This document shows, piece after piece, positions 37,911 to 50,132 of a DNA stretch of 64,000 bases (within the stretch, counting starts at the first letter, position 1; every line of letters begins with the position of its first letter). A program made the translations under genes and the position numbers. The notes below the pieces were generated by a model, which had not been told where the DNA came from, ran no database searches, and worked only from the letters and a program-made list of their open reading frames with translations. The DNA comes from an uncultured Actinomycetes bacterium. Lineage in GTDB: Bacteria; Actinomycetota; Thermoleophilia; Gaiellales; Gaiellaceae. Where the stretch lies: contig CAVQDQ010000004.1 of the NCBI GenBank assembly GCA_963711315.1, forward strand, positions 7,825 through 71,824. The letters run 5' to 3'.

Positions 37911-38729
37911 TGTGCAAGGGCCTCTTCGAGGGTAGGTGTGGGAACGCCGAGTCGGCGGCCCGCGCGGACGACCGCGCCGCCGATCGCGTCGAGCTCCGAG
38001 GGCCGCCCGGCGGAGACGTCGCGTTCCGTTGACGACGTGGCCCAGTCCGGCAAGGACTCGATGATCGCCCATTGCTCGTCGAACGTCGTCCGGGCGCCGT
38101 CCGCTGCGGCGACCGCGCACGCTTCCTCGATTGCCAGGCGCAGCCGCTGGCCGGTCCGCAGCTCGCCGATCGTCTCACCTGCCACCGACGTCAGCACGGC
38201 GATCGGACCCTGGCGGGCGAGCTTCTCCCACAGCACGTCCTTCTCGTTTCGCCACGTCCGTGTGGCGATGCCCGCGCGTTCGAGTTGCTCCGGGGCCTCG
38301 TCGGTGGCGACGTTCACGAGCCCTGGAGTCTGCTGAACGATGCGGGTGGGCGATTCCCGATACCCCTCGAAATGACCGATCGTCGCCGCGACGACGCTTC
38401 GAAACCTGTCGCGCAGCACAGCCATGTGCTCGATGCCGTTCAGCAGGGGGAGAACGAGCCCGGGCTCGGCCCGGATGCGCGCGATGCCGTCTTCCAGACC
38501 GTACGCCTTCACCGTGACGAGCAAGAGGTCGACGGGCTCCTCCAGCCGCTCCGTGACCTGGAGCTGCTCGGTGTGCTCGCCGTCGTCCGTCACGAGCGTC
38601 AGGCCTTCGGCGGCAATCGCCGCCGCGGTCTCCGGCCGCGCCACGCAGACGACGCGCTCGCCGGCAAGCGCCATGCGGACGCCGAGCGCACCCCCGACCG
38701 CCCCCGGACCCGAGGACCGCGACGCTCAT
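37898..38729 (-). pseudogene. Ketopantoate-reductase-family (ApbA/PanE) oxidoreductase, one homopolymer frameshift
   Basis: From the ATG at 38729, MSVAVLGSG is followed by a G5 run (plus-strand C5 at 38701-38705). With G4 the text reads GSGAVGGALGVRMALAGERVVCV..., which is continuous with ORF 37898..38674. Confidence 0.85.
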
Positions 38730-40154
38730 ATCTTGGCCGGATCGCTGATGAGGTTCACGTACTTCCACTCCGAGTACACGTCGAGCGCCTCCACACCGGG
38801 CTCGCGCCAGCCGGTGCCCGATTGCTTCACGCCGCCGAAGCCCATGTGCGGCTCCGAGCCATGCGTCCCGCCGTTCACGACGACGACGCCAGCCTCCGCC
38901 TTCTCGGCAAACCGCATCGCTCGGTGCAGGCTCGCCGTGTGAACGGCGCACGTGAGGCCGTACGGCGAGTCGTTGACGACGGTCAGCGAGTCCGCCAGGT
39001 CATGGACGCGATAGAGGATCGTCACGGGGCCGAACAGCTCGGTGCAAGAGAGCTCGGCGTCGGCAGCAACGTCTTCCAGGATCGTCGGCGCAAGCCACCA
39101 ACCGTCACGCTCGAGACGCTCGCCGCCGCAAAGCACTCTGGCGCCCGCCTCGCGTGCCCGCGCGAGGGCATCGAGGATTCGGCCGAGGCTCGCCTCGCTG
39201 ATCACCGGGCCCGTGTCCGCGAACTCCTGGGCGGCTTCCACAAAGCGGCTGCGGAACTCGTCGTACACGGCGTCGAAGATGACGATTCTCGAGGCGGCCG
39301 CACACCGCTGGCCGGCGTTCGAGAACGACGATTGCACCGCCCAGCGGACGGCGTTGTCCAGATCCGCGTCGTCGCAGACGACCAGTGCGTTCTTGCCGCC
39401 CAGCTCCAGGCAGACCTTCGCCAGCCGCCGGCCGGCCGCCTCCGCGATCCAACGCCCCGTCGCCGCCGAGCCCGTGAAGCTGACGAGATCGACCTGCGGA
39501 TGCTCGACCAGGGCGGCACCAGCCTCGGCGCCGAGCCCCTGCACGACGTTGAGGACGCCCGCCGGCACACCGACCTCGTGGCAGACACGCGCGAAGAGTT
39601 GTGCCGAGAGCGGCGTCTCCTCGGAGGGTTTCAGCACGGTGCCGTTGCCGCAGAAGATCGCCGGGAACACCTTCCAGGCGACGTTCGGAAGCGGTGTGTT
39701 GAAGGAGATCAGCAGGCCCGCAACGCCCACGGGCTGCCGGACGGCCATCACCGTGCGGTGGGGCATGCTCGCGGTCGTCGTCCGTCCGTAGTAGCGGCGG
39801 CCCTCGCCCGCCACGAAGAGCCCCAGCTCGATCGCCGCGTCGGTCTCACCCAGGGCGAGCGCCTCTGCCTTTCCAGTCTCCTCGACGACGACCTCCGAGA
39901 GCTCCTCGCGCCGTTCCCGCAGCGCCAGCGAGATCTCGCGGACGAGATCGCCGCGCTCTACCGCCGTCCGCTCGGCCCAGGGCTCCTGTGCCACCCGCGC
40001 AGCCTGCACCGCAGCGTCGACGTCGGCCGCCCCGGACCGCGCAACGCGACACAGCGGCGCGCCGTCCGACGGCCGCAGCTTCTCGAGCCACTCGCCCCGA
40101 GCTCGCCGGCACCGCCTCGCCCGCGATGAGGTTGGGCACGTCGGCGACAGCCAC
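38726..40154 (-). pseudogene. NAD(P)+-dependent aldehyde dehydrogenase, one homopolymer frameshift near the N-terminus
   Basis: The GTG at 40154 gives VAVADVPNLIAGEAVPASSG, which stops matching at the G4 run (plus-strand CCCC at 40095-40098). It then continues as EWLEKLRPSDGAP...FTGS...ELGGKN...SNAGQRCAA.... An AAGG lies upstream of the GTG. Confidence 0.88.
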
Positions 40155-40164
40155 GGGGCCAACC

Positions 40165-40632
40165 TTAGGCGCTCGCTTGATCGGGCGACGGCCGCAGCAC
40201 GAGCGTCTCATTCGGTGCGTGCGCAAGCATCCAGGCGACGTCCTTGCCCGAGAAGCCGGGATGTCCCGGAGCGAGCGCGGGCACGAGGATGCGATCGAAG
40301 GTCTCCACCTCCCACAGTCTCCCGAGTGCATCGATCGGCGTCCGCCCTCGCTCTATGCGGGCATCGACCGGGACGCCGGCGCGCGCAGCAGCGGTCTCGA
40401 CTGCTTCCAGCAGCGGCAGCGCTTCCTCGGCCTGCCGTGCGAGCGCGGCTTCGACGTCGAACTCGAGCGGCACCACGACGAGAAAGGCGGCGACGAGGAT
40501 CGCTTCCTCCGCCCGTGCGATGCGAATCGCCGCCTGCAGCACTGCCGGATCGAGCGCGCCGTCCGCGAAGGGCACTAGCAGCCGCGGCTGGCCCTCGCGC
40601 CGTTCGGCCGTCTTTCGTCGCCGGAGCCTCAC
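40165..40632 (-). CDS. Universal stress protein (Usp) family
   Basis: 155 aa with LLVPFADGALDPAVLQAAIRIARAEEAILVAAFLVVVP.... It forms a GTGA overlap with the KdpD-N gene. Its stop lies 10 nt before the ALDH start. Confidence 0.7.
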   Translation of the reverse strand: MRLRRRKTAERREGQPRLLVPFADGALDPAVLQAAIRIARAEEAILVAAFLVVVPLEFDVEAALARQAEEALPLLEAVETAAARAGVPVDARIERGRTPIDALGRLWEVETFDRILVPALAPGHPGFSGKDVAWMLAHAPNETLVLRPSPDQASA

Positions 40633-41717
40633 GGCGGTCGCTCCTCGCGCAGCGCGCGGTCGGCGATGACGCGGATGTCGATCCCGGGCAGCTCGCGGAC
40701 CATCCGGGACAACAGCGACCCGCGGACGATCTCAACGCGGCGGCGCTCGTCGGGCGTGCCGACGAAGACGTACGTCGACCCGCGCTCGGCGGCCACCCGT
40801 CCGACCGTCGCCACGAGGTCATCGCCCTCCTCCTCGAGGAAATGGACGCCGAGGATGGAGGCGAGCCGCCGCAGGGCGGCCAGCTGCGTTGCCTCCTCGG
40901 CCGTGAGCTGCTGGCCGGGGTGGCGCATCCACATGGCGTCGATATCGCTTCCCAGCCGCTGCGCCGACCGCCAGGCGCGGCGCAGGATGCGCTGGGACTT
41001 CGGCTGCGGTTCGATGAGTGCGAGCACCCGCTCCGTGACCGCCTGCTGGCTGAGCGGGTCGAGCACCTTCGGTGAGCGACGGGCCTCGACGTCCTCGGCC
41101 ACCTCTCGCAGCGCAAGCTCACGCAGCGCGGAAAGGTTCTCCTGGGTGAAGAAGTTCAGCAACGCCCGCTCGGCCTGGCCGCCGGGGTAGACCTTGCCCG
41201 CCCGCAAGCGCTCCTGCAGCGCCTCGGGCGAGAGATCGACCAACACGACCTCGTCGGCGTCGTCCAGCACGCGGTCGGGGAAGGTCTCGCGGACGCGAAC
41301 TTCGGTCAGCTCCGCGACTGCGTCGTTGAGGCTCTCCAGGTGCTGGACGTTCACCGTCGAGATGACGTCGATACCGGCGGCGAGGATCTCGTCGATGTCC
41401 TGGTAGCGCTTCTCGTTGCGCGAGCCGGGGGCGTTCGTATGCGCAAGCTCGTCGACGAGTGCGAGCTCGGGCGCCCGGCGTATGACGGCGTCCACATCCA
41501 TCTCCTCGAGCCCGAGCGAGCCGTGCTCGATGGGTCGGCGCGGCACGGTCTCGAGCCCCTCGGCGAGGGCGGCCGTCTCAGGACGATCGTGCGGCTCGAG
41601 GTAGCCGATCACGACGTCTCGGCCTTCCGCCTTTGCCTGGCGACCCTCCTGGAGCATCCGGTAGGTCTTGCCGACGCCGGCCGCCATCCCGAGGAGGATC
41701 CGGTACCGGCCTCGCAT
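40629..41717 (-). CDS. Stand-alone KdpD N-terminal sensor domain (KdpD-N plus Usp-like), without TM or kinase parts
   Basis: Reads MRGRYRILLGMAAGVGKTYRMLQEG...VIGYLEPHDRPET...ALVDELAHTN...RYQDIDEILAAGIDVISTVNVQHLES.... It ends after the Usp-like region, at 362 aa. Confidence 0.85.
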   Translation of the reverse strand: MRGRYRILLGMAAGVGKTYRMLQEGRQAKAEGRDVVIGYLEPHDRPETAALAEGLETVPRRPIEHGSLGLEEMDVDAVIRRAPELALVDELAHTNAPGSRNEKRYQDIDEILAAGIDVISTVNVQHLESLNDAVAELTEVRVRETFPDRVLDDADEVVLVDLSPEALQERLRAGKVYPGGQAERALLNFFTQENLSALRELALREVAEDVEARRSPKVLDPLSQQAVTERVLALIEPQPKSQRILRRAWRSAQRLGSDIDAMWMRHPGQQLTAEEATQLAALRRLASILGVHFLEEEGDDLVATVGRVAAERGSTYVFVGTPDERRRVEIVRGSLLSRMVRELPGIDIRVIADRALREERPP

Positions 41718-41726
41718 GGCGGGAGG

Positions 41727-43786
41727 TTATGCCCCGAAGACGTTGTGGATGAGCAGGTCGATCAGCTTGATGCCGACGAACGGCAGGATCACGCCGCCCA
41801 GCCCGTAGATGAGGAGGTTGCGCCGCAGCAGCGCCGTCGCCCCGATCGCGCGGTACTTCACGCCGCGCAGAGCGAGCGGTACGAGCGCGGGGATGACGAG
41901 CGCGTTGAAGATGATCGCGGAGATGATCGCGCTGTAGGGGCTGCCGAGGTTCATGACGTTCAGCTGGCCGAGAGGGCCTTCCTCGCCCGGAACAGTGGAG
42001 TAGGTGAAGGCGAACATCGCCGGCAGGATGGCGAAGTACTTTGCGACATCGTTCGCGATCGAGAACGTCGTCAGCGAGCCGCGGGTGATGAGGAGCTGCT
42101 TCCCGACCTCGACGATCTCGATGAGCTTCGTCGGGTTGGAGTCGAGGTCGACCATGTTGCCGGCCTCCTTGGCAGCGGTCGTCCCGGTGTTCATCGCCAC
42201 GCCGACGTCGGACTGGGCCAGCGCAGGCGCGTCGTTCGTCCCGTCACCCGTCATCGCGACCATGCGGCCGCGAGCCTGCTCCTCCCGGATGAGCTCGAGC
42301 TTCCGCTCGGGCGTCGCCTCGGCGAGGAAGTCGTCGACGCCCGACTCCTGCGCGATCACGGCGGCGGTGACCGGGTTGTCGCCCGTGATCATCACCGTGC
42401 GGATGCCCATCTTCCGCAGCTCGTCGAAGCGCTCGTTCATGCCGCCCTTGACGATGTCCTTGAGGTGGACGACGCCGAGCGCGAAGTTGTCCTTGGCGAC
42501 GACGAGCGGCGTGCCTCCCTGCTCGGCCACCTGCTGCACGATCCCGTCGAGCTCGGCGGGGGCGCTCCCTCCCTGCTCGCGATGAACTCCTTGACGGCGT
42601 CGGCGGCGCCCTTGCGGATCATCGTCCCGTTCATGTTGAGGCCGCTCATGCGCGTCGTCGCGGAGAACGCCACGAACTCGTGCTGCTCGCCGAGCTCGCG
42701 CTCGCGCAGCCCGAACTGCTCTTTGGCGAGCACGACGATCGAGCGGCCTTCGGGAGTCTCGTCGGCGAGTGAGGCGAGCTGTGCCACCTCTGCCAGCTCG
42801 AGCGTCTCGACACCTGAGAGCGGCAAGAACTCGGCTGCCTGACGGTTGCCGAGCGTGATCGTGCCGGTCTTGTCGAGCAGCAGGACGTCGACGTCGCCCG
42901 AGGCCTCTACCGCGCGGCCGGACATCGCGAGCACGTTGCGCTGCACGAGGCGGTCCATGCCGGCGATGCCGATCGCCGAGAGCAGCGCGCCGATCGTCGT
43001 CGGGATGAGGGCCACGAGCAGCGCGATGAGGACGGTCTGGGACAGATGCGTGCCGGCGTAGTCCGCGAACGGCGCCAGCGTGACCGTCGCGACGACGAAC
43101 GTGATGGTCAGGCCGGCGAGCAGGATGTTGAGCGCGATCTCGTTCGGCGTCTTGCGGCGCTCGGCGCCCTCGACGAGGGCGATCATGCGGTCGAGGAACG
43201 AGCGGCCCGGCTCCTGCGTGACCTCGATGACGAGCCGGTCCGAGAGCAGCCGTGTGCCGCCGGTCACGGCCGAGCGGTCGCCGCCTGCCTCGCGGATCAC
43301 CGGCGCCGACTCGCCCGTGATCGCGGACTCGTCGACCGAGCCCACGCCCTCGATGATCTCGCCGTCGGCGGGGATGACCTGGCCGGCTTCGACCACGACG
43401 ATGTCGCCGCGCTGGAGATCGGGTGCGGCAACCTCCTCCAGCCCGCCGGTGTCGGTTCGCCGGAAGGCCATGGTCGTCGTGCGCGTGGCGCGCAGCGCGT
43501 TGGCCTGCGCCTTGCCACGGCCTTCGGCGACCGCCTCCGCGAAGTTCGCGAACAGCACCGTCAGCCATAGCCAGAGCGCGATCGTGCCGGTGAACCAGAG
43601 CGGCTCCGATTCGTCCGACGAGAAGAGGTCGCGGAAGAAGATCACCGTCGTGATCACGCTGCCCAGCTCGACGATGAAGATCACCGGGTTGCGGAAGAGC
43701 GTCCGCGGGTCGAGCTTCACGAACGAGTCGCCAATCGCGTGGAAGACGATCGCGCGGGTGAAGATGCCGCCGCTGCGCGTCGTCAT
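41727..43786 (-). pseudogene. kdpB: K+-transporting P-type ATPase subunit B, one apparent frameshift
   Basis: Starts [39 protein letters not shown]. Contains ...[13 protein letters not shown].... The break is near 42560-42590. It then continues as ...[11 protein letters not shown]...[13 protein letters not shown].... The ATG overlaps the kdpC stop (ATGA). Confidence 0.9.
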
Positions 43787-44368
43787 GCCGTCTCCTCGTC
43801 CAGCGCCAGGTTGAGCTCGAGCACGTTCACGCCCGGCTCGCCGAAGATGCCCAGCCAGCGCCCGTCTGTGTTCTCGTCGATCAGCCCCTCGACGCGGTCC
43901 AGGGAGAGCCCACGGACTTCCGCCACGCGCGCCGTCTGGAGTTGGGCGTTGGCCGGGGAGATGTGCGGATCGATGCCCGACCCAGAGGTCGTCACGGCGT
44001 CGACGGGGATGTCGCCGATCCGCAGACCCGGGTTGTAGGGGCGCTCCAGCTTGAGAATCGCGAGCACGCGTTGACGTACGGCCTTCGCGAGGTCGGGGTT
44101 CGTCGGGCCGAGGTTGGCGAACGTCGTCGCGGCGGCGTTGTACTCGGGTGCCGTCGCCGAGGGCCGCGGGTGGAAGTACTCGCGGCTTTGTGAACGCCTG
44201 CGCGGCGAGGCGGGAGCCGACGATCTTGCCGTCGCGCTCGATGAGGCTGCCGTCCGCGCGGCCGGGCGCGATGAGCTGCGCGAGCCCGGTGAACGCGAGG
44301 GGATAGGCGAGGCCGAAGACGAGCGTCAGCACGACGACGGCGATGACGGAGCGGCCGAGCGTGCGCAT
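43783..44368 (-). pseudogene. kdpC: K+-transporting ATPase subunit C, one apparent frameshift
   Basis: [24 protein letters not shown]...[23 protein letters not shown] continues after a break near 44186 as [31 protein letters not shown]...[16 protein letters not shown]...[11 protein letters not shown]. It is located between kdpA and kdpB. Confidence 0.88.
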
Positions 44369-46072
44369 CAGGGAGAAAGCGCCTCCACGATCGGGCCCAG
44401 AGTGAGGGCCGGGAAGAGCATCAGGCCGGCGGTCAGGATCGCGACGCCTACGAGCAGGACGGCGAACGTCGTGCCGTCGGTGCGGAACGTTCCCGCGGAC
44501 GGCGGTACGGTCCTCTTGGCGGCCAGCGAGCCACCCAGCGCCAGCGCTGCGATGAGCGGCGCGAAGCGTCCCAGCCAGAGCGCAATCGAGCCGACGAGCG
44601 TCGAGAACTCCGTCGCGCCGTAGCCGGCGAACGCGCTGCCGTTGTTGTTCGACTGGGAGTCGTAGGCGTACAGCGCCTCGGAGAAGCCGTGCGCAGCCGG
44701 ATTGAAGATGGATGCCAGGCCGCGATCGGTGGCGATCGAGATCGCAGTCAGTACGAGCACCATCGTCGGCACCAAGAGCGCGCCGACAGCAGCGAGCTTG
44801 ATCTCCCTCGCCTCGATCTTCTTCCCGAGGTATTCGGGCGTACGGCCCACCATCAGCCCCGCCACGAAGACGGCGATGACGATGTAGAAGAACATCCCGT
44901 AGAGACCGGAGCCGACACCGCCCCAGATGACCTCGCCCGTGAACATGTTCGCAATGGGCACGGCTCCGCCCGTCGCGGTCAACGCGTCATGGCCGCCGTT
45001 GACCGACCCGTTGGAGGCGTTCGTCGTCGCCACGGCCCAGTTGACCGTGGACGCGATGCCGTAGCGGACCTCCTTGTCGGACATGTTGCCGCCGCTCTGC
45101 CCGTCGCCGGCAGTGATGTTCACGCCGGAGTCACGTAACACCTGGGATCCGTGCTGCTCGGCCGGTAGCGCGACGGCGAGGCCGATGATCGTCATCGCCA
45201 TCATGGCCCCGTAGATGGGCAGCGCCTGGCGGCGCGCCCCGATCATGCGGCCGAACATGAAGACCTGCGCTGCGGGGATGAGCAGGATGGACAGCATCTC
45301 CAGGAGGTTCGTGAAGGGGTTCGGGTTCTCGAAGGGAACGGCCGAGTTCGAGTTGTAGAAGCCGCCGCCGTTCGTCCCCAGCTGCTTGATCGCGATCTGC
45401 GTCGCCGCCGGGCCGCGTGCGATCGTCTGCTGGGCGCCCTCGACCGTCGTCGCGGTCGCCTAGCCGTCGAACGTCTGCACGACGCCCTGTGTGATGAGCA
45501 CCACCGCGAGAATCGCGGCCAGCGGGCAGCAGGATGTAGACGAGCGAGCGGTAGAGGTCGACCCAGAAGTTGCCGACCGTCGACGCCGAGCGCCGCGCGA
45601 AGCCGCGGATGACGGCGACCAGCACGGCCATGCCGAGCGCAGCGGACACGAAGTTCTGCACTGCCAGCCCGGCCATCTGGCTCAGGTACGACATCGTGTA
45701 CTCGCCGCCGTAGTACTGCCAGTTCGTGTTGGTGACAAAGCTCGCGGTCGTGTTCATGGAGACCCACGAGTTCACGCCTTTGAGGCCATCGGGGTTGAAC
45801 GGCAGGTGACCTTGTAGCCGCAGCAGGAGATAGAGCAGCACGGCGAAGACGCCCATGAAGATGAGCGCCGTCTTCGCATAGCCCTTCCAGCCCTGCTCCT
45901 CCTCGGCCCGCGTTCCCAGGAGCCGGTAGAAGCCGCGCTCCGGTGCGGTGAGCCAGCGCGGCATGCGCAGCGTGCCCGCGTAGACCCGCGACATGTAGAT
46001 GCTGAGCGGGTACGCCAGCACCGTGAGGATCACGACGTAGAGGACGATCTGCGTGATGCCGTTGCCGGTCAC
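44368..46072 (-). pseudogene. kdpA: K+-transporting ATPase subunit A, one frameshift plus an in-frame TAG
   Basis: The GTG at 46072 overlaps the kdpF stop. VTGNGITQIVLYVVIL...NTNWQYYGGE... breaks near 45520. It continues as ...[61 protein letters not shown]..., with the TAG at 45460-45462. The frame is then intact to 44368. Confidence 0.9.
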
Positions 46073-46158
46073 AGCTTCTCGCCTCGGAACAGCACGTAGA
46101 CGAGATACGCGACCACGAGTACCGCGACGACGAGGCCGAAGATGTCGCCCGCGGCCAT
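46069..46158 (-). CDS. kdpF: K+-transporting ATPase subunit F (29 aa)
   Basis: Reads MAAGDIFGLVVAVLVVAYLVYVLFRGEKL. It is a single hydrophobic helix. Its stop overlaps the kdpA GTG (GTGA). Its ATG overlaps the stop of the preceding small ORF. Confidence 0.75.
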   Translation of the reverse strand: MAAGDIFGLVVAVLVVAYLVYVLFRGEKL

Positions 46159-46241
46159 CAGACGCGGCTCAACACGTAGATGACCGCGAACGAGAACGCG
46201 AAGCACGCGAGCGCGATGACGATGCCGAGCAACTCGACCAT
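46158..46241 (-). CDS. Small hydrophobic ORF (27 aa) immediately upstream of kdpF
   Basis: Reads MVELLGIVIALACFAFSFAVIYVLSRV. It is chained by TGATG overlaps to both neighbours. No family was recognised. Confidence 0.4.
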   Translation of the reverse strand: MVELLGIVIALACFAFSFAVIYVLSRV

Positions 46242-46537
46242 CAGTGCTCCAGCGCCTCGGCCGCGTCGTCAAGTGCTTCGCCGAGCTCGTCCGCCCGGTC
46301 ACGGTCGTGAAGCGGGCTCCAGGGGTCGTCGAGCAGTTGCTCGAGGAGCAGGACGCCGCGCGGCGCGACAGGGCGCTCGAGATCGGCGAGCCGGTCGGCG
46401 AGCGCGAGAAAACTCTCCGCTTCCGCGCGAACGGCGAGGCGGTCGAACGTCTGGGCACCAGGGAGATAGCGGGCGTCGGAATCGTGGACGAGCCGGCGCA
46501 GCGTGTGCGCGAGGTCGAGGCGCCGCTTCGGGATCAC
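46241..46537 (-). CDS. Hypothetical acidic helical protein (98 aa), first ORF of the kdp transcription unit
   Basis: The GTG at 46537 gives VIPKRRLDLAHTLRRLVHDSDARYL...LLEQLLDDPWSPLHDRDRADELGEALDDAAEALEH. Third positions are G/C-rich on this strand. Its stop overlaps the next ORF's start (TGATG). Confidence 0.5.
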   Translation of the reverse strand: MIPKRRLDLAHTLRRLVHDSDARYLPGAQTFDRLAVRAEAESFLALADRLADLERPVAPRGVLLLEQLLDDPWSPLHDRDRADELGEALDDAAEALEH

Positions 46538-46699
46538 GAGCTCGGCCGCGCGCCAGGAAAGCCGCAGGGACGGGCACCGGCGAACGAAGCAGCTCCCGGT
46601 CCGCGACCCGTCGCGCGCGCGCGCAGCTGGCGCCGCTGGCGAAACGATTGCACGACCTGCGTCAAGATATTCGAGGCTACGGACGGCCGCCTGAGCGCC

Positions 46700-46738
46700 G
46701 TCTAAGGGTTCGAGCCGCCGGTCTAAGAGTTGTCTAAA
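46700..46738 (-). promoter_or_regulatory. Three phased direct heptad repeats (minus strand TTTAGAC, CTTAGAC, CTTAGAC; starts spaced 11 and 21 nt). Candidate KdpE operator.
   Basis: The plus-strand copies are GTCTAAG at 46700-46706 and 46721-46727, and GTCTAAA at 46732-46738. They lie in the only sizeable intergenic gap of the minus-strand train. A TANNNT hexamer (TAGCCT, 46674-46679) lies downstream. Confidence 0.45.
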
Positions 46739-47420
46739 GCGCCGGATTGACCAGGCGGTAGCCGACGCCGGCCTCCGTGAGGATGTACCTCGGTCGCGAT
46801 GGATCGGGCTCGAGCTTGCGTCTCAGCTGCGACACGTAGACGTGGATGTAGCTCGACTCCCGCTGGTAGGCGGGCCCCCAGACCTCGCGCAGGAGCGTCG
46901 TGTGGGTGAGCAGCTTGCCTTCGTTCTTCGCCAGCAGGCGGAGCAGCTCGAACTCGTGCGGCGTGAGGTGGACGGGCTCTCCCGCCATGGCCACCGAGTG
47001 CTTCTCGAGGTCGACGACGAGGTCGCCGATCTCGAGCACGGTGAGGCCGGCGGGCTCGACTCTCCGCAGCACCGCCCGCAGCCGCGCGAGTAGCTCGCCG
47101 ATCGCGAACGGCTTCGTGACGTAGTCGTCGGCGCCGGCGTCGAGCGCCGCCACCTTCTCCGCCTCCTCGCCGACGGCCGAGACGAGGATGATCGGCGCCT
47201 GCGTCCACTCGCGCAGCTCGCGGCAGACGTCGGTGCCGCGCCCGTCAGGCAGCAGGAGGTCGAGGATGATCGCCTCGGGCGGCTGCAGCCCGGCCGCAGC
47301 AAGCGCCTCCTGGGCCGTCGTTGCCGTCGCGACGTCGTAGCCGGCGCCGCGGAGGTTCGTCTGCAGTGCCCGTAGGAATTGCGGCTCGTCGTCGACGACG
47401 AGAATCCGCTCTCCGCTCAC
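46734..47420 (-). CDS. kdpE: OmpR/PhoB-family response regulator (KdpE-like)
   Basis: Contains ILVVDDEPQFLRAL...IILDLLLPDGRG...DDYVTKPF (receiver domain). A winged-helix domain follows (...LTPHEFELLRLL...VYVSQLRRKLE...GVGYRL). It forms a GTGA overlap with the kinase gene. Confidence 0.92.
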   Translation of the reverse strand: MSGERILVVDDEPQFLRALQTNLRGAGYDVATATTAQEALAAAGLQPPEAIILDLLLPDGRGTDVCRELREWTQAPIILVSAVGEEAEKVAALDAGADDYVTKPFAIGELLARLRAVLRRVEPAGLTVLEIGDLVVDLEKHSVAMAGEPVHLTPHEFELLRLLAKNEGKLLTHTTLLREVWGPAYQRESSYIHVYVSQLRRKLEPDPSRPRYILTEAGVGYRLVNPAL

Positions 47421-48815
47421 GCAGGCACCTCAGCCGGCAACTCGACCACGGGCAAGGCGAGTACGAACGACGCGCCCTGGCCCTCGCGCGACTCGAGCCA
47501 GAGGCGGCCGCCGTTCGCTTCGGTGAAGCCGCGGGCGATTGCCAGGCCAAGCCCCGCGCCGCGCTGGTCGGGCTGCCCGTCGACCCGGTAGAAAGGCTCG
47601 AAGATGTGCTCGTACTCCTCCTCGGGAATCCCCGGCCCGCGGTCGGTGACGCGAATCAGCAACTCCTTCCGGGTGGCGTTCACGCGCACGTGCACCCGCT
47701 CGTCCGGCGGCGAGAGCCTGATCGCGTTCTCGAGCACGTTCACGAGCGCCCGCTGGATCTGCGTCGCGTCGACCTGGACAGGAGGGCACGTCGGGACGCG
47801 CGTCCACGACGACCTGCTCCGGATCGGCGAGCTCGTCCATCGGCCTGCGCGAGCAGTTCGTCCGCCGTCCAGAGCTCGGGGCTCGCTACTGCCGCACCGG
47901 CCTGGAGCCGCGAGAGATCGAGGAGGTTCTCGACGAGCCGCTTCAGCCGCGTGTGCTCGACGCGGATCGTCTCCAGCAGGTCGACCCGGTCCTCGTCGGA
48001 GAGCGCCAGCTCGCCGCTCTGGAGCCCGTCCAGCGCCTGCTCGATCGTGGCCAGCGGCGTGCGGAGATCGTGTGACACGGTCTGGATGACGGCGGTCTTG
48101 ATCGTGTCGCTGCGGCTGAGTGCCTCGGCCTCGAACGCGTCGCTCGCCAGCCGCTCCCGCTCCTGGGTGACGGCCAGCAGCGAGGCGAGCGCCGGTAGGA
48201 ACCGCCGCTGTATGGCGAGGGCGGGCTCCTCGCTCTCGCTGCGTGTAGATCGTGCCGATCTCCCTGCCGTCGACGGCGAGCGGATGCGGTGCCTCGCCCG
48301 TACGCTCGCTCACCCGCCCGCCGAGCGCGATGCGCACCGAGGAAACGCCGAGCACCGTCGGCCGTTCTCTGCTCGATGCGTTCGAGCTCATCGTCCAGCC
48401 GCGTGCCGCGCAGGAGCTCGACAGCGATGTCTGCGAGCAGCGATGCCTCGAGCTCGCGTTGCTCAGCCTCGGCCCGCTGTCCTCGGGCCCGAGAGGCCAG
48501 GGTGCCGACGACGATCGCCGTCACCACGTAGACGAGCAGCGCGAACCAGTTGCTGCGGTCGGCGAGCGTGAACGAGTACACCGGCGGCAGGAGGAAGAAG
48601 TTGAACGCGAGCATGCTCGCGACCGCCACCAAGACCGCGTAGGCGATGCCCCAGAAGAGCGCAATCGGCAGGACAGCGAAGACGTAGAGCACGCCGAGGC
48701 TGAGCACCGGGATGAAGTCGTCGAGAACGGCAATCGCCGCAGTGACGACGGTGACCGCGAGCGCCCCGGCCGCGATGCCGGCCAGCGGGCTCTTCAGCGA
48801 CTCAGCGATCCAGCC
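47417..48815 (-). pseudogene. Membrane sensor histidine kinase equivalent to the C-terminal half of KdpD, at least 4 frameshifts. The start is not resolved.
   Basis: The TM bundle is SLKSPLAGIAAGALAVTVV...VLYVFAVLPIALFWG...NFFLLPPVYSFTLAD...LLVYVVTAIVVG. It is followed in changing frames by ...VLGVSSVRIALGG..., VSHDLRTPLATIEQ (H-box), ...ALVNVLENAIRL (N-box) and ...DRGPGIP...GAGLGLAIARG (G-boxes). The breaks are near 48385, 48245, 47850 and 47795. Confidence 0.8.
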
Positions 48816-48825
48816 GCATGAGGAG

Positions 48826-49614
48826 CTACCAGGCCGACCAGCCGCCGTCGACGACGAGGTTTGCCCCCGTGACGTACGACGAGGCGTCCGACGCGAGGAA
48901 GACGACGGCGCCAAGCGCCTCGCCTGCATCGGCCATTCGCCCGAGCGGCACCCGTGCGCCATAGGCCTCGAGGAACTCCTGGGGCTGCTCGTTGAAGATC
49001 CCGCCCAGCGTCAGCGTGTTCACGCGCACGCCGGACTGCGCCCAGTAGGTGGCGAGGTAGCGCGTGAGGTTCAGCAGCGCCGACTTCGATACCGAGTAGG
49101 CAACCGGCTTGAAGAACGTCTCGCCCTTGCTGCGCCGGAACTCGTAGAGATCCTGCGGTGGTGAGAGGAGGCCGTAGACGGACGAGACGTTGACGATCGA
49201 GCCACGTCCCGCCTCGGCCATCGCGGCGCCGATCGCCTGACAGCAGAGGACGACACCCTTGACGTTGACGTCCATGACCTCGTCGAAGGAGGCCTCCGGG
49301 TACGTCTCGAAGGGGCCGACCTCCTCGGGCGGCGCGTCCGGCGGCGAGTCGAGCGCGGCGTTGTTGACCAGCAGGTGCGGCGCGCCCCACTCGGCAGTGA
49401 CCTCGGCCGTCGCCGATTCGATCGACGCCCGGTCCTTGACGTCGACCCGGTAGCGGCGGACGCTGTCGTCACCACCCGGCTCGGCCGCGACGTCGAACAC
49501 GGCCACACGCATGCCGCGCGCGGCAAGGCCGTCGGTGTAGACCTGCCCCATCTGGCCGAGACCGCCGGTGACGACGGCCACGCGGCCGGCGAGATCGAAC
49601 AGCTCGTCGGTCAC
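48826..49614 (-). CDS. Short-chain dehydrogenase/reductase
   Basis: The GTG at 49614 gives VTDELFDLAGRVAVVTGGLGQMG...NNAA...SSVYG...YSVSKSA...VTGANLVVDGG. It forms a GTGA overlap with the upstream gene. Confidence 0.88.
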   Translation of the reverse strand: MTDELFDLAGRVAVVTGGLGQMGQVYTDGLAARGMRVAVFDVAAEPGGDDSVRRYRVDVKDRASIESATAEVTAEWGAPHLLVNNAALDSPPDAPPEEVGPFETYPEASFDEVMDVNVKGVVLCCQAIGAAMAEAGRGSIVNVSSVYGLLSPPQDLYEFRRSKGETFFKPVAYSVSKSALLNLTRYLATYWAQSGVRVNTLTLGGIFNEQPQEFLEAYGARVPLGRMADAGEALGAVVFLASDASSYVTGANLVVDGGWSAW

Positions 49615-50132
49615 GCGTGCGCCTTCCAGATCGCATCGCAGAACTCGCGCACGCAGCCGTCGCCTCCCGCGCGCGTCAGCACCCAATGCGCGTGCTCTCT
49701 CGCCTCCGGCCACGCATCGGCCGGCACGACGGGAAGCCCGACCGCCTCGAGGCATGTCGCGTCGTTGATGTCGTTGCCGACGTACGCGGTCTGCTCGAGC
49801 TCGATCCCGCGCGCCACGGCCTGCTCGCGGAGCAGGGACAGCTTCTCCTCGATCCCCTGGATGCACTCGATGCCGAGCTTGCGCGCCCGCACACCCACGA
49901 CCGGCGCCGTCTCCATCGACACGACCAGCGCCTCGACGCCAACCTCGCGCAGCCGGCGGAGGCCGAGCCCATCGGCGCGGCAGCAGCGGACGCTCTCGCG
50001 TCCGTCGTCGTCGACCCAGACGTGGTTGTCTGTGAAGACCCCGTCGAAATCGAAGACCGCGAGCCGCACCGACGCCAGGGTCTCGCGCGACGGCGCCGCC
50101 GGCTCAGCTTGCAGCACGCACCACCGGCTCAT
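49611..50132 (-). CDS. HAD-IIIA phosphatase of the KdsC/YrbI type (ulosonate-8/9-phosphate phosphatase-like)
   Basis: Contains LAVFDFDGVFTDN...ADGLGLRRL...YVGNDINDA...GGDGCVREFCD. The start is uncertain within 50100-50132. Confidence 0.82.
   Translation of the reverse strand: MSRWCVLQAEPAAPSRETLASVRLAVFDFDGVFTDNHVWVDDDGRESVRCCRADGLGLRRLREVGVEALVVSMETAPVVGVRARKLGIECIQGIEEKLSLLREQAVARGIELEQTAYVGNDINDATCLEAVGLPVVPADAWPEAREHAHWVLTRAGGDGCVREFCDAIWKAHA

Follow-up and report, generated by a model that had tools for sequence, protein, structure and literature searches.

In the Kdp high-affinity K+ uptake system of Escherichia coli (kdpFABC-kdpDE), kdpC follows kdpB, a single KdpD of 894 amino acids is encoded after kdpC, and the regulators lie downstream of the pump. 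KdpB is phosphorylated at Ser162 by the N-terminal domain of KdpD, which acts as an atypical serine kinase and so inhibits the pump (Silberberg et al. 2024, Nat Commun, PMC11018627), and in some species the serine- and histidine-kinase activities reside on separate chains, the commonest division being that between a KdpD/universal stress protein (Usp) chain and a transmembrane (TM)/GAF/DHpCA chain. According to the same work, Deinococcus, Anabaena and Alicyclobacillus retain the serine-kinase chain downstream of the pump, split KdpD is commonest in Acidobacteriota and Chloroflexota, and short forms of KdpD are linked to cyclic di-AMP (c-di-AMP) (PMC11018627). The pump genes are also rearranged in D. 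radiodurans, where they run kdpB-A-C-kdpD-N and the genes for the kinase half and the response regulator are divergent (Dani et al. 2017, PMC5716572), and in E. coli a stand-alone Usp, UspC, binds the Usp domain of KdpD (PMC2714519, PMC11018627). Here we describe a kdp locus found in 64,000 nucleotides of DNA from an uncultured member of the Gaiellaceae (assembly GCA_963711315.1, contig CAVQDQ010000004.1; G000:C4:7825-71824 in our notation), a stretch that we call the window; G000, the genome carrying it, comprises 3.38 Mb in six contigs, with 68.5% G+C and a completeness score of 88.7%.

Taken as a whole, the locus is very probably an ordinary Kdp high-affinity K+ uptake cassette of Gaiellales/Thermoleophilia, whose lesions are consensus errors and which has been inserted in a glycan locus. 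When the named genome collection was searched with an alignment of KdpC, 80 loci were returned. The order kdpA-kdpC-kdpB (A-C-B) is clear in 57 of them and fits three further, partial loci, whereas the canonical A-B-C order is found in 20, from Ilumatobacteraceae, Microthrixaceae and Acidimicrobiales (Acidimicrobiia), one member of the Acidobacteriota and others. The A-C-B loci bear the labels Gaiellaceae, Gaiella, Gaiellales, Thermoleophilia and Conexibacteraceae, together with one Rubrobacter fragment; a histidine kinase (HK) and KdpE are encoded upstream in 47 of the 57 and a stand-alone KdpD N-domain (KdpD-N) downstream in 54, while those A-B-C loci with intact frames encode a fused KdpD of 830-900 amino acids followed by KdpE. 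A Usp-like open reading frame (ORF) is present in 45 of the 57 A-C-B loci and in none of the 20 A-B-C loci. On these counts over the 80 loci, A-C-B order goes together with a split sensor and an extra Usp as one lineage-typical architecture.

Closer relatives repeat the whole arrangement. Four genomes of the same genus, G011 (a single contig), G016, G014 and G002, carry HK-kdpE-(F)-A-C-B-KdpD-N-Usp, their ORFs being intact and the sizes in same-genus relatives being about 566 amino acids for KdpA, about 194 for KdpC, about 684 for KdpB, 465-482 for HK and 362 for KdpD-N. The same order holds in G022 and G024, which belong to two other families of the order, although kdpA and kdpB of G022 were recovered as partial ORFs only. 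An earlier reading made from the sequence alone (the sequence-only reading) had taken canonical order in related genomes as the mark of a misassembly; the relatives share the layout instead, so the arrangement is not a misassembly. Two loci, L071 and L081, have the kinase half after the Usp-like ORF (A-C-B-KdpD-N-Usp-HK) and not upstream with kdpE, a variant that may be intermediate between the fused and the split layouts. A further locus, L047 (CAYTGX010000236.1, 1475 nt), labelled as an uncultured Spirochaetaceae, holds a KdpA-KdpC junction with 70% identity to Gaiellaceae KdpC and is probably a mis-binned actinobacterial fragment.

In the window, the cassette reads on the minus strand from 48819 to 40165 in the order HK, kdpE, kdpF, kdpA, kdpC, kdpB, KdpD-N and Usp-like ORF. 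The features are as follows, with the two flanking genes given first and last.

48826-49617, minus strand: SDR, a short-chain dehydrogenase flanking the cassette and belonging to the glycan locus (adh_short_C2, 1.5e-42); its start is approximate.
47417-48819, minus strand: HK, the histidine-kinase half of KdpD, with a DUF4118 membrane block, a putative GAF-like linker, HisKA and HATPase_c (Pfam matches to DUF4118, HisKA and HATPase_c on window pieces).
46734-47420, minus strand: kdpE, an OmpR-type response regulator, intact (Response_reg, 3.7e-27; Trans_reg_C, 4e-26).
46159-46733, minus strand: kdpE-kdpF spacer, about 575 nt, variable, with a 98-aa ORF inside.
46069-46158, minus strand: kdpF, 29 aa (PF09604 at 5.1e-06, above the gathering score).
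44368-46072, minus strand: kdpA (PF03814 in two pieces, with one TAG inside).
43783-44368, minus strand: kdpC, between kdpA and kdpB (PF02669 positions 3-57 and 60-182, in two frames).
41727-43786, minus strand: kdpB, the P-type ATPase subunit (E1-E2_ATPase, 2.8e-34, and Hydrolase, 1.6e-17, in two frames).
40629-41717, minus strand: KdpD-N, stand-alone, 362 aa, intact (PF02702 at 9.6e-95).
40165-40632, minus strand: 155-aa Usp-fold ORF, intact (predicted structure and Foldseek).
38726-40154, minus strand: ALDH, an aldehyde dehydrogenase flanking the cassette and belonging to the glycan locus (Aldedh, 9.8e-145).

The pump itself is complete at the level of families: KdpF, KdpA, KdpB and KdpC are all present above the Pfam gathering scores, and both the DKTGT phosphorylation motif and the A-domain TGES motif can be read in the translation of kdpB. 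The overlaps TGATG between kdpA and kdpC and ATGA between kdpC and kdpB fix the position of kdpC between the other two, as the sequence-only reading had proposed, and there are GTGA overlaps at HK/kdpE, kdpF/kdpA and KdpD-N/155-aa ORF. The same reading had placed a separate TM/HisKA/HATPase gene upstream, paired with kdpE, and this is borne out by the GTGA overlap and by DUF4118, HisKA and HATPase_c matches in three window pieces, the H-box being SHDLRTP. The intact orthologue in G011 (465 aa) has DUF4118, HisKA and HATPase_c, with a gap of about 120 residues between the first two in which no GAF family scored. KdpE, whose gene adjoins that of the kinase, combines a receiver with a winged-helix Trans_reg_C domain. 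The stand-alone 362-aa KdpD-N downstream of kdpB, followed by an extra Usp, was likewise called correctly: residues 2-211 align to the KdpD N-domain structure PDB 2r8r (E 7.6e-67), and in that alignment the Walker A (GMAAGVGKT, G-x5-GKT) and Walker B (LVDELAHT, DE) motifs are conserved, while the C-terminal half (182-362) has a weak Usp match (E 0.089; 13.8 bits, where the cut-off is 24). KdpD-N is presumed to be a serine-kinase chain, with a putative divergent Usp-like C-terminal half.

When set against the described systems, the locus shares the families of E. coli kdpFABC-kdpDE (KdpF, A, B, C, the KdpD domains and KdpE) and presumably the same response to K+ limitation, and is non-canonical in its arrangement, as had been claimed: KdpD is neither single nor encoded after kdpC, kdpC does not come after kdpB and the two-component pair is not downstream. 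It agrees with the published split-KdpD systems (PMC11018627) in the division into two chains, in the serine-kinase chain directly downstream of the pump genes, in keeping KdpE and in the presence of Walker A, Walker B and the KdpB TGES target; it differs from them in lying in Thermoleophilia (Actinomycetota), in its A-C-B order and in the extra stand-alone Usp-fold gene. With D. radiodurans (PMC5716572) it has in common a non-canonical pump order, a naturally truncated KdpD-N that ends the pump operon and, immediately upstream, a response regulator paired with a kinase half of its own, but the order there is B-A-C with divergent regulators, whereas here it is F-A-C-B with co-directional ones, and no extra Usp gene is described for D. 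radiodurans. Split sensors and non-canonical pump orders are therefore already known from these two studies, and the novelty suggested by the sequence-only reading has to be narrowed accordingly: the combination of a stand-alone KdpD-N with a separate kinase is published (PMC11018627), and what seems undescribed in the literature searched is limited to the A-C-B order and the extra Usp. No description of the A-C-B order was found there; the names kdpFACB and kdpACB for Geobacter and Alcaligenes look like loose naming and probably do not denote such an order.

The assignment of the 155-aa ORF deserves separate comment, since its match to the Usp family PF00582 (E 0.18, 12.8 bits) falls below the gathering cut-off of 24 and even its best orthologues score 20-21 bits. 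Its AlphaFold model, obtained with an alignment of 40 family sequences, is a confident one (predicted local distance difference test, pLDDT, 87.6; predicted template modelling score, pTM, 0.84), and in a Foldseek comparison of this model with the PDB the top 37 matches are all Usp proteins, as are 39 of the 41 matches at E <= 0.001. Most target-normalised template modelling scores (TM-scores) lie at about 0.6-0.75, and the third-ranked match, 7ji4, is a KdpD Usp domain with c-di-AMP bound. Given the confident model and the Usp-dominated matches, and in spite of the sub-threshold Pfam score, the designation "extra Usp" is right at the level of the fold. By inspection, the family consensus has no G-2x-G-9x-G[ST] ATP-binding motif, with a single conserved glycine (G126) at that place. 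Many orthologues (L038, L040, L053, L055, L057, L064, L065, L074 and L075) begin with about 20 hydrophobic residues and continue with an Arg-rich segment, which points to a membrane-anchored form that the genus of the window does not have. UspC offers a precedent for a small Usp-fold protein acting with the N-terminal region of KdpD; it is unlinked to kdp in E. coli, whereas the Usp gene of the window is translationally coupled to KdpD-N, with which its product would be a putative interaction partner.

Homology to the E. coli and Deinococcus systems suggests a working mechanism. The membrane-bound half of the kinase (DUF4118-GAF-like-HisKA-HATPase) would sense low K+ and phosphorylate KdpE, which would in turn activate a promoter in the kdpE-kdpF spacer and drive expression of kdpF-A-C-B-kdpD(N)-usp. 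Co-expressed behind the pump, the KdpD-N/Usp chain would phosphorylate the serine of the KdpB TGES motif at high K+ and switch the pump off, and the extra Usp-fold protein may modulate this KdpD-N switch; the A-C-B order would be an old neutral permutation fixed in the lineage. A model in which c-di-AMP controls the system was set aside for this genus, given that no DAC domain (PF02457, the c-di-AMP cyclase) was found in four of its genomes (G000, G011, G016 and G008, 88.7-98% complete, with 93% and 98% among the values), which makes such control doubtful here and sets the genus apart from the published link between short KdpD forms and c-di-AMP (PMC11018627). The domain is present in both sister-family genomes, G022 and G026.

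The spacer between kdpE and kdpF is presumed to be the promoter and operator region of the pump operon. It contains an ORF (46241-46537, 98 aa) without a Pfam match, and Rfam gave no match at E <= 1, to a riboswitch or other RNA, either in this gap or in the whole locus. Its length is variable: only about 225 nt separate the kdpE stop from the kdpA start in G011, which shows several private deletions, 13-188 nt long, when the cassettes are aligned, most of them probably falling within the spacer, and across the 57 A-C-B loci the distance from KdpE to KdpA ranges from about 250 to 1250 nt.

A caveat that the sequence-only reading did not carry is the loss of open frames. As assembled, HK, kdpA, kdpC and kdpB are not open, judging from a plot of third-position G+C (GC3) by frame and from alignment to intact orthologues. 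HK has 1-nt insertions at about 48807, 48357, 48240, 47841 and 47786; kdpA has a +1 at 45524 and, at 45462-45460, an in-frame TAG in place of the AAG (Lys) of its relatives (G011 and both copies of G005); kdpC has a +1 at 44183, its span of 586 nt not being a multiple of three; and kdpB has a -1 at 42578. The flanking ALDH carries a +1 private to G000 at about 40098, so that its frame is shifted about 19 codons past the GTG start at 40154. Another 1-nt insertion private to G000 lies outside kdp at 38708.

These single-base lesions are, on comparison with the related sequences, most likely consensus errors of long-read assembly of a metagenome-assembled genome (MAG). In a four-way alignment, the substitutions private to G000 fall at codon positions 1/2/3 in the proportion 34/21/143 (72% at the third position), the intact copy of G011 shows the same bias among its own (89/46/284), and the bias persists within the broken genes of G000 (HK 3/2/24, kdpB 1/0/16). 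All 11 indels private to G000 in the cassette alignment break the frame, 8 of them being 1-nt insertions, and the second cassette copy of G005 has 13 private 1-nt insertions. Most of the named relatives are long-read soil MAGs, and many genomes of the genus consist of few contigs yet score low on completeness, some of them with fragmented KdpC matches. Frame breaks on the same strand without a stop were called with a 7-state codon-position hidden Markov model (HMM), adopted in place of a sliding-window frameshift detector that recovered only one of seven kdp breaks; for six kdp breaks the model comes to within about 11 nt of an indel derived from alignment, and for five of these to within 2 nt. 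Genome-wide its calls number up to 687, or about 2 per 10 kb, 20 of them in the window, and at least six breaks occur in 5.3% of 8.7-kb windows. Elsewhere in the window, the calls lie at 2734, 3086, 4498, 5323, 8477, 18450, 20676, 22737, 24712, 24866, 56169, 57108 and 59816.

Several points nonetheless weigh against reading the locus as an ordinary cassette with an erroneous consensus. Lesions are two to three times as dense in the cassette (about 9-11 per 8.65 kb) as in the adjacent flanks (2 per 4.3 kb), five of them are concentrated in the 1.4-kb kinase gene, and one of those in kdpA is a nonsense substitution and not an indel. Calibration of the HMM on good loci indicates that about one call per 10 kb is false, arising where genes adjoin tightly, so the figure of 687 breaks is an upper bound. 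On the functional side, a scan of the locus for sigma-70-like promoters gave no consensus match, and the serine-kinase activity, the control by KdpE and the role of the Usp are all inferred from homology only.

The strongest competing explanation is that the kdp cassette is truly decaying in this organism, pump and kinase having been pseudogenised by indels and a stop that are biological. In its favor, the nine single-base indels and the one nonsense codon fall in HK, kdpA, kdpC and kdpB, at the raised density just given, while kdpE, KdpD-N and Usp (2.25 kb together) are free of lesions; moreover, 8 of 18 same-genus genomes, many of which are incomplete, yielded no KdpC, and the pump may hence be dispensable there. 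Some ten real lesions should, however, have brought with them dozens of neutral substitutions, many of them at codon positions 1 and 2, and no such excess is seen: these positions account for 28% of the substitutions on the G000 branch, both overall and in the broken genes, which equals the share in intact orthologues. Insertions of the same 1-nt type recur, besides, in the flanking ALDH and in the cassette copy of another MAG (G005), and the frame breaks are spread genome-wide, with the 5.3% of windows mentioned above being at least as dense. We consequently regard genuine decay as unlikely, and apparent pseudogenes in the G000 assembly and in sister long-read MAGs should not be taken as biology.

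The second component of our interpretation, that the cassette has been inserted in a glycan locus, derives from a comparison of the SDR/ALDH site in the loci L105, L017, L024 and L106. In G011, SDR and ALDH overlap directly (GTGA; L105, G011:C1:952500-958000) and the kdp cassette lies 1.7 Mb away; reciprocally, contig C2 of G000 has the G011-type site with both flanks and the cassette missing. In G016 and G014, the cassette stands between the same SDR and ALDH genes but inverted, with breakpoints in short spacers, and contig C10 of G005 (L106) is colinear with the window over 13 kb, both junctions included, at 91% identity. From this comparison, the cassette is a discrete 8.65-kb insertion in a single ulosonic-acid glycan locus, where it separates SDR and ALDH, which are translationally coupled genes. 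Sequence identities of the cassette track species clades and not the insertion site; neither terminal inverted repeats at the cassette ends, among the best pairs, nor a recombinase gene could be seen. The SDR orthologue of G016 has 263 amino acids. A look for a mobility gene at the vacant G011-type site of G000 (G000:C2:527585-530924) turned up only two ORFs, which by eye resemble a cupin (154 aa) and a non-specific endonuclease (305 aa). G005 has two kdp cassettes, 90.7% identical, on contigs C2 (L023) and C10 (L106), one per alternative site, which represent either a real duplication or a bin of two mixed populations (70% complete, 4% contamination).

Two statements of the sequence-only reading about these surroundings need to be revised. 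What had been seen as two glycan clusters is one locus split by the 8.65-kb insertion, as follows from the empty site of G011 and the inversion in G016 and G014. The junctions are indeed short, the Usp stop being 10 nt from the GTG start of ALDH at 40154 (GGTTGGCCCC, 40155-40164), as stated, and the SDR stop being 6 nt, not about 10, from the HK ATG at 48819 (CTCCTC, 48820-48825); the end of the locus had been set at 48815, some 4 nt short. The K+ module was accordingly rightly described as continuous with the sugar genes as far as adjacency in sequence is concerned, but a functional link is not supported, in view of the same empty site and inversion.

It might still be supposed that the glycan genes are co-transcribed by design with the K+ module, as one unit that ties envelope-sugar synthesis to K+ status, all the more so as in G000 and G005-C10 all genes are co-directional with 6- and 10-nt spacers and as terminator-like sites do not exceed the shuffled expectation anywhere meaningful, with none at the cassette edges. 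We find this highly improbable, seeing that the cassette is inverted between the same two genes in G016 and G014, that it is absent from the site in G011, where SDR and ALDH are joined by GTGA, and that most other loci have different neighbours; any read-through in G000 would be an accident of insertion. The closeness of kdp to SDR and ALDH is thus no sign of a functional link, and read-through may occur without the design being conserved. That the layout, or the place it occupies within the glycan locus, reflects a chimeric assembly, as the error-prone assembly and the two cassettes of G005, possibly a mixed bin, might suggest, can practically be discounted, because G005 C10 is colinear with the window across both junctions and because the A-C-B internal order recurs in 57 independent loci, closed chromosomes among them.

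Beyond the reading of the locus as an ordinary Thermoleophilia Kdp cassette, a bolder proposal can be made, which we regard as rather unlikely in its joint form: that in Thermoleophilia KdpD-N would have gained a dedicated Usp-fold partner, coupled to it in translation and anchored to the membrane in some lineages, that gives an off-signal where c-di-AMP synthesis seems to be lacking, and that the 8.65-kb cassette would be relocatable, in either orientation, exactly between translationally coupled genes without a recognisable recombinase or terminal repeats. If true, the dedicated Usp partner would be a new input to the post-translational control of Kdp. These results do not only extend the published split-KdpD design to Thermoleophilia but also place on record a lineage-wide kdpF-A-C-B order with an attached Usp. 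While of little import alone, this architecture is useful for the study of the KdpD N-domain switch outside the c-di-AMP and E. coli paradigms.

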